A stretch of DNA of 4,604 bases, taken from IMG/VR virus record IMGVR_UViG_2690316347_000014, positions 1 through 4,604 of that record, one strand, 5' to 3'. The stretch is from a virus (Duplodnaviria > Heunggongvirae > Uroviricota > Caudoviricetes). A program made the position numbers and the translations under genes. The notes below the pieces were generated by a model that was given only the letters and a program-made list of their open reading frames with translations, made no database searches and was not told the DNA's origin. The number at the start of each line of letters is the position of its first letter. The stretch's first letter is position 1. Below are positions 1 to 74 of this stretch, one piece after another.

Positions 1-74
1 CAGGGAAAAATATCATCAGATGGCTGCTTAAAAAAAGAACAAATGGTAGTGTCCGCTATTGCCAGTACACCTCA
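1..74. mobile_element. Left copy of the 74-bp terminal inverted repeat; likely the terminus of an IS3-family insertion sequence whose body lies outside the window (tip at position 74)
   Basis: Positions 1-74 are the exact reverse complement of 4531-4604, checked base by base; identity stops at 75/4530. Read from the inner tip outward the repeat starts TGAGGTGTACTGGCAATAGCGGACACTACC, sharing TGAGGT and CGGACACT at the same offsets with the IS left end at 3808 (20/30 identical, ungapped). A TAA stop sits about 44 bp before the tip in one inward-reading frame (...REKYHQMAA*), as expected for a transposase 3' end. Confidence 0.6.

Follow-up and report, generated by a model that had tools for sequence, protein, structure and literature searches.

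The perfect 74-nt inverted ends of a phage-gene contig from Shigella sonnei very probably mark an assembly break in inverted IS600 copies around a Rac-like prophage remnant

Here we describe a 4,604-nt stretch of phage-related DNA (hereafter the window) that begins and ends with a perfect 74-nt inverted repeat. The window is very probably a Rac-like prophage remnant between inverted copies of the insertion sequence IS600, with its ends cut by the assembler at the repeat. Two IS600 copies would face each other, right ends inward, around the prophage remnant. The assembler would follow unique sequence k-1 bases into IS600, where the path would merge with all other copies; at k=75 this would leave 74 nt of IS600 at each end and produce a perfect inverted terminal repeat. 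The inverted copies, at 1.26 kb each, would also be substrates for homologous recombination, which could flip the segment.

A repeat search of the window found positions 1-74 and the reverse complement of 4531-4604 to be identical at 74/74 positions, with 4,456 nt between the arms. The runner-up inverted pair in the same search was 25 nt long at 80% identity. A perfect 74-nt inverted match in 4.6 kb cannot have arisen by chance. Identity breaks at 75/4530 (T versus A after complementing) because the IS600 boundary lies there: the left junction reads ...CCTCA/TAC... and the right junction ...CTTT/TGAGG.... Reverse-complemented, the window is identical to contig CXDU01000201.1 (4,604 bp) of draft assembly GCA_001248965.1 over the contig's entire length, and both window ends are therefore contig ends. 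A preliminary description of this DNA had reported the 74-bp repeat, its break at 75/4530 and its extension to the very ends of the window. All three observations hold, the ends being those of the deposited contig.

Judged by exact junction matches, the window is assigned to Shigella sonnei. Near-identical copies of window 1-4604 (99.8%), with inverted IS600 on both sides, are present in CP044151 (a closed chromosome; L006, also L016), AKND01000010 (L009) and L019. Relative to the window, these genomes have substitutions at 143 and 168 and differ by one TCTTCC unit. L009 and L019 have one full 1,264-bp IS600 copy on each side; the right side of L006 has IS600 98-1264 abutting a second, full copy. 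On these sequence grounds, the source isolate itself presumably has full IS600 copies on both sides. A second group, comprising HE616528 (L004; S. sonnei 53G, PMC5447701), L007 and L008 together with drafts L017, L018 and L021, has the right IS600 only and an intact 118-aa gene at the left site. In all chromosome-scale records the segment lies in the same prophage, beside modABC-gal. Window 75-3807 and 4185-4530 have collinear counterparts in FDAARGOS_944 (L002), an Escherichia coli relative free of IS, where phage genes continue on both sides. The parts of the window are as follows (coordinates, strand and basis).

1-74 (+): left IS600 inner tip, IS600 positions 1191-1264 (right inverted-repeat end, ...CCTCA), pointing into the segment; 100% match, full copy precedes in L006, L009 and L019
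72-203 (-): hypothetical phage gene, first 43 of 118 codons, cut by the left IS600; L002 homologue of 118 aa
75-77 (unstranded): TAC, one copy of the 3-bp target duplication of the left IS600; L006 junctions, site empty in L002, L004, L007 and L008
261-683 (-): DUF977 family gene, 140 aa; ORF, Pfam PF06163 on the identical L004/L006 gene, annotation
698-1444 (-): ydaV, DnaC/IstB-like ATP-binding replication protein, 248 aa; PF01695, PF00308, annotation ydaV
1451-2243 (-): ydaU-like replication gene, frameshifted into 113-aa and 89-aa ORFs; intact 262-aa homologue in L002
2321-2626 (-): YdaT-family gene, 101 aa; PF06254, annotation
2726-2953 (-): Cro-like regulator, 75 aa; PF14549, annotation
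3030-3437 (+): cI-like HTH repressor, 135 aa; PF01381
3640-3795 (+): DUF1391 gene, 51 aa; PF07151, annotation
3808-4097 (+): third, partial IS600, left end (IS 1-290), 100%, with a 77-aa truncated orfA ORF at 3872-4105; IS600 alignment, PF01527
4098-4530 (+): Rha-family phage regulator gene, 3' portion; PF09669, alignment to the 282-aa L002 Rha
4531-4604 (-): right IS600 inner tip, opposite orientation, + strand reads TGAGGTGTACTGGC...; IS600 body continues in L004-L009 and L019

Both 74-nt arms correspond to IS600 positions 1191-1264 at 100% when aligned to a 1,264-bp IS600 reference cut from pWR501, and the inverted match is perfect because the two arms are the same 74 nt of IS600. The reference starts with TGAGGTAG / TGAGGTAGCC and ends with ACACCTCA / GTACACCTCA; its termini are TG...CA and its terminal inverted repeats are imperfect, left and right being identical at 20 of their first 30 bases. 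Exact (100%) matches to the 74 nt occur in at least 652 Escherichia/Shigella plasmid records, including Shigella pINV, and always lie inside or at the edge of an annotated IS600 (for example, 'IS600 ORF2' on pCP301 and 'IS3-like element IS600 family transposase' on pWR501). The full flanking copies in L004-L009 encode a 100-aa HTH_Tnp_1 product (orfA) and a 272-aa rve product (orfB), and RefSeq annotates IS600 as 'IS3-like element IS600 family transposase, programmed frameshift'. Target duplications of 3 bp are seen at the left copy (TAC/TAC in L006) and at a copy in the int gene (AAC/AAC in L004, L007 and L008). The repeat belongs to IS600, of the IS3 family: each of the defining features that we tested was found, those of the transposase in the full flanking copies. 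Five insertion sequences, IS600 among them, have expanded in all Shigella, and each chromosome carries 229-348 IS insertions (PMC7373316). The suspicion that the true repeat is longer than 74 bp is confirmed by the near-identical genomes, where the IS600 body continues past 74 bp on both sides (1,264 bp each side in L009). The preliminary description overlooked the identity of the repeat as IS600 and the partial copy at 3808-4097; apart from mobility as a composite unit, considered below, what it did propose is supported.

The length of 74 nt is explained by the point at which sequence ceases to be unique. We counted k-mer uniqueness on L009 at several values of k. At k=75, uniqueness extends for exactly 74 nt into either IS600 copy and ends at L009 5913 and 10510, the points to which window positions 1 and 4604 map. 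The same simulation gives 88 nt at k=89 and 30 nt at k=31. Sibling draft contigs end 30, 86, 88 (four contigs), 107, 125, 144 and 173 nt inside IS600, the depths of 107 and 173 falling outside a simple odd k-1 rule. Since sibling contigs stop at differing depths, the depth is a property of the assembly and not of the biology. The 1.26-kb IS600 is impassable for a short-read graph assembler because it is multicopy in Shigella. We infer an assembler run at k=75 with overlaps of k-1, the convention of Velvet and ABySS. A further break is expected from the k=75 simulation at the internal IS600 fragment (290 bp), which the contig crosses; read pairs presumably resolved this fragment but not the 1.26-kb copies. 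For the 173-nt overhang of L017 we considered a copy-specific SNP at IS 1154, and rejected it as the k-mers between the junction and the SNP are still repeated. Across 104 collection blocks the longest contig with the segment is only 2-5 kb, and a small stand-alone contig is therefore common in drafts. The earlier proposal that a 74-bp shared end is a de Bruijn residue thus fits both facts: the window is a whole draft contig, and the k=75 simulation matches both of its ends to the base.

The chimeric 160-aa ORF that joins the Rha remnant to IS600 occurs exactly in 99 assembly-collection blocks, seven of which have chromosome-scale contigs, HE616528 (L004) among them; the genomes are S. sonnei. 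A 62-aa ORF over the left junction (72-260, -) is on record in only two contigs. For the 43-aa junction ORF (72-203) no exact record was found in the collection searched, because one residue is Asn in the window but Asp in L006 and L009. This substitution, at position 143, and the one at 168 both lie in the truncated hypothetical gene. A 36-mer spanning the left junction gave 0 matches in IMG/VR viral contigs and 0 in JGI metagenomes, and the window is therefore of neither viromic nor metagenomic origin. The E. coli complete-genome collection, which apparently contains no Shigella, has no record with IS600 at either segment junction; orientation was accordingly judged from the assembly-collection loci.

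The two flanking copies have different histories. In L006, the left junctions read ...CCCGTAC, IS600, TACAGAGG..., with TAC on both sides, and the IS interrupts the 118-aa gene behind its codon 43. This is a simple insertion whose TAC duplication is as expected for the IS3 family. The right IS600 cuts Rha three codons before its stop, shows no duplication (CCC versus AAA) and adjoins DNA that lies far downstream in L002; it is therefore associated with a deletion. With the left copy flanked by TAC and the right one tied to a deletion, the copies arrived independently. On its outer sides the IS600 pair is flanked (+ strand) by TAC at the left and GTT at the right, each of which pairs with the duplication of a single-IS insertion.

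Further rearrangements are seen around these copies. The right-hand IS600 of L004, L005 and L006 (10437-12867) is arranged head-to-tail, 1-1264 then 98-1264; L007, L008 and L009 have a single copy. In L005 and L006 the outer flank of the right IS600 is the int-gene flank, which implies that gam through int' was deleted via recombination between direct IS600 copies. In L005 (UGZB01000001, 4.96 Mb), positions 8447-10003 hold the left IS600, then GAC, then the IS600 1-290 fragment, window 75-3804 being deleted. This junction (right inverted repeat, 3 bp, left inverted repeat) resembles an IS3-family tandem-dimer or circle junction and suggests that the deletion was transposase-mediated, not homologous. 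In L010-L013 (~9700-9714) and L019 (6443-7706), the IS600 1-290 fragment or the right IS600 is joined to varied unrelated chromosomal flanks (the hpa operon, the xdh region, the ushA region, the int' flank and the lacZ/yahN region); such joins reflect either additional rearrangements by IS600 or assembly misjoins at the repeat.

One genome carries the segment in the opposite orientation relative to its surroundings. Read in the orientation of the segment, L006 runs from DUF1133...QueH into IS600(+), segment and IS600(-), followed by int' and modCBA, and L009 runs from modABC and int' into IS600(+), segment and IS600(-), followed by QueH...DUF1133. BLAST of L009 against L006 places the segment and both IS copies in the same orientation, with both flanks reverse-complemented and swapped. 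The outer flank ...CCCGTAC, half of the TAC duplication, is beside the left IS in L006 and beside the right IS in L009; the int-gene flank ...GGCCGAAC is beside the right IS in L006 and beside the left IS in L009. In both genomes the private SNPs of the right copy (IS 980 and 1154) are found beside the right inner junction, and the L009 assembly therefore kept the copies distinct. This pattern is as expected for reciprocal homologous recombination within inverted IS600, upstream of position 980. Inversion is seen in a single draft assembly (L009) and in 0/7 chromosome-scale records, all of which are of the L006 type or free of the left IS. The prediction that inverted repeat copies bracket the segment and allow it to be inverted by homologous recombination is thus realized in one draft genome, L009, which is flipped relative to L006 with its outer flanks exchanged. 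Inversions flanked by IS are documented in S. sonnei, in a survey that took events of >7 kb (PMC12795559).

The neighbours of the flippable module are a Q-like antiterminator, hok and a lysis region on one side and recombination genes on the other. It is very unlikely that the IS600-bracketed module flips frequently and thereby alters the expression of neighbouring prophage genes, or that the IS600 pair occasionally mobilizes the cassette: the basis for these ideas is one inverted draft genome and no second location, and neither is required. A site-specific invertible switch of the Hin/Gin/Fim type was also considered and rejected. No called gene product of the segment has a Pfam resolvase or invertase, the adjacent integrase gene is split by IS600, and IS copies of 1.26 kb, as the repeats are here, need nothing beyond general homologous recombination.

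The interior of the window, a 4,456-bp remnant of a Rac-like prophage, represents its replication and immunity region. Beyond the matching gene set, prophage relatives carry recE, gam, xisR and intR. The hypothetical gene truncated at 72-203 takes its stop codon from the IS600 end; its L002 homologue reads MEIKPEDEL...HHASV/RVDEK..., the stroke marking the site of the cut. The Rha remnant (4098-4530) is without ~137 N-terminal codons and the last 3 codons, and has IS600 fused at both ends, which gives the chimeric 160-aa ORF at 4095-4577. At 4097/4098 the IS600 1-290 fragment is joined to the middle of the Rha gene; here the segment lacks, relative to L002, ~1.3 kb of phage sequence that includes the 5' part of Rha, and IS600 291-1264 is absent as well. 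The 77-aa truncated orfA ORF (3872-4105) overlaps the start of the chimeric 160-aa Rha' ORF.

Several smaller features were observed in the phage genes. The ydaU-like gene contains a TCTTCC x5.5 array (1799-1831) encoding a poly-Glu tract whose copy number differs among strains; L006 and L009 have one unit fewer than the window, and L002, L007 and L004 have 6 to 15 Glu. A change in the length of a T-run at 1921-1928 frameshifts this gene. A 19-bp palindrome, GTAACGC-N5-GCGTTAC, occurs in three exact copies (1856-1874, 2065-2083 and 2257-2275; spacing 209 and 192 bp), two inside the ydaU-like gene and one just upstream, with a chance expectation of 0.01. The palindromes may be binding sites for an initiator or regulator, or origin iterons. 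Operator-like CTTAGGTTTTTCTA sites surround the cI-like gene, two in the cro/cI intergenic region (2963-2976 and 2991-3004 (-)) and two downstream of the cI-like gene (3510-3523 and 3546-3559). The pattern has 5 matches versus 0.47 expected, counting a weak fifth at 3877-3890 inside the IS600 fragment. A 23-bp near-tandem repeat (3492-3535) overlaps operator-like sites. The ydaT-family gene, 140 aa long in L002 and L014, has only 101 aa here (TTG start), and a separate ORF of 58 aa (2566-2742) lies upstream; the shortened gene is probably another pseudogene of the decaying prophage.

The same junction data bear on other ways of reading the inverted ends. The preliminary description allowed that the segment might move as a composite unit, and an active composite transposon of the Tn10/Tn5 type, formed by the IS600 pair and the prophage segment, would have the architecture seen in L006, L009 and L019: two inverted IS600 copies bracket the segment with their outer left ends intact, and nearby IS600 copies have intact orfA and orfB. 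However, the outer ends share no 3-bp duplication (TAC versus GTT), the left copy having its own TAC/TAC, and the flank outside the right IS600 has its partner in the AAC duplication of the L004/L007 int gene. DNA on both sides of the left IS is collinear with the IS-free prophage L002, and in every chromosome-scale record the unit is at one location only, in the same prophage near modABC-gal. In L004, L007, L008, L017, L018 and L021 the left copy is absent, so the copies came separately. Movement as a unit is not borne out, and we regard an active composite transposon as most improbable.

Two further readings concern the ends as such. Terminal inverted repeats of >=20 bp are a CheckV signal of completeness (PMC8116208), and the contig has phage replication and immunity genes, as might a small linear phage or plasmid whose true inverted terminal repeats or hairpin telomere were the 74 bp. 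Yet the repeat is IS600, the sequence extends beyond either end in closed chromosomes, the IS cuts both terminal genes short, and the window has no structural, packaging, terminal-protein or polymerase genes; the authors of CheckV themselves found that only 33% of contigs with inverted terminal repeats look complete (PMC8116208). The chance that the contig is a complete linear replicon is practically nil. A pure artefact, in which chimeric or fold-back assembly created the inverted ends in a genome that has no second inverted IS600 beside the segment, would suit a short-read draft contig from a region that misassembles, as the sibling drafts L010-L013 and L019 suggest by joining an IS600 fragment to varied flanks. 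It is scarcely plausible given that the closed chromosome CP044151 (L006/L016), L009 and L019 have both copies around the identical segment, that the left junction has a clean target duplication and that chimeric junction ORFs recur in many independent assemblies (99 blocks). An IS600-bracketed prophage remnant cut by the assembler remains by far the best account of the window.

The expansion of IS600, the IS-driven decay of prophages and IS-mediated inversion in Shigella are already known and well documented, and the biological weight of this case is small. It is an example of how a contig break at an inverted multicopy IS can mimic a perfect inverted terminal repeat. Under rules based on terminal repeats of >=20 bp (the CheckV class of inverted terminal repeats), a contig so rich in phage genes would count as a candidate for a complete viral genome. 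The case also records a 4.5-kb IS600-mediated inversion, with several nearby deletions driven by IS600, in a single S. sonnei prophage, events too small for the thresholds of published surveys of structural variation.

Each component has a known counterpart. The arms match the right end of IS600 (IS3 family) at 100%, and the element has orfA and orfB joined by a programmed -1 frameshift and makes 3-bp duplications; by contrast, the window itself has only the 74-nt tips and a 290-bp left-end fragment, with no transposase-competent copy inside. The interior resembles the Rac prophage of E. coli K-12 and Rac-like lambdoid prophages in carrying DUF977, ydaV, ydaU-like, ydaT, cro-like, cI-like, DUF1391 and Rha genes in the same order, but is heavily decayed, with two genes cut by IS600, ydaU frameshifted, ydaT shortened and ~1.3 kb deleted. 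With Tn10/Tn5 composite transposons the locus shares the arrangement of IS, cargo and inverted IS; it differs in having no outer duplication, no second location, copies that are independent and a decayed prophage fragment as its cargo. As in the IS-flanked inversions of S. sonnei (PMC12795559), a segment is flipped between inverted IS copies, the flanks are exchanged and the target duplication is split, although at 4.5 kb the event is under the 7-kb threshold and is seen in one draft with no known phenotype. Finally, like other repeat-induced de Bruijn contig breaks, the window ends at equal depth on both sides in one multicopy element, here exactly as k=75 predicts; its common end appears inverted rather than direct because the flanking IS600 copies are themselves inverted.
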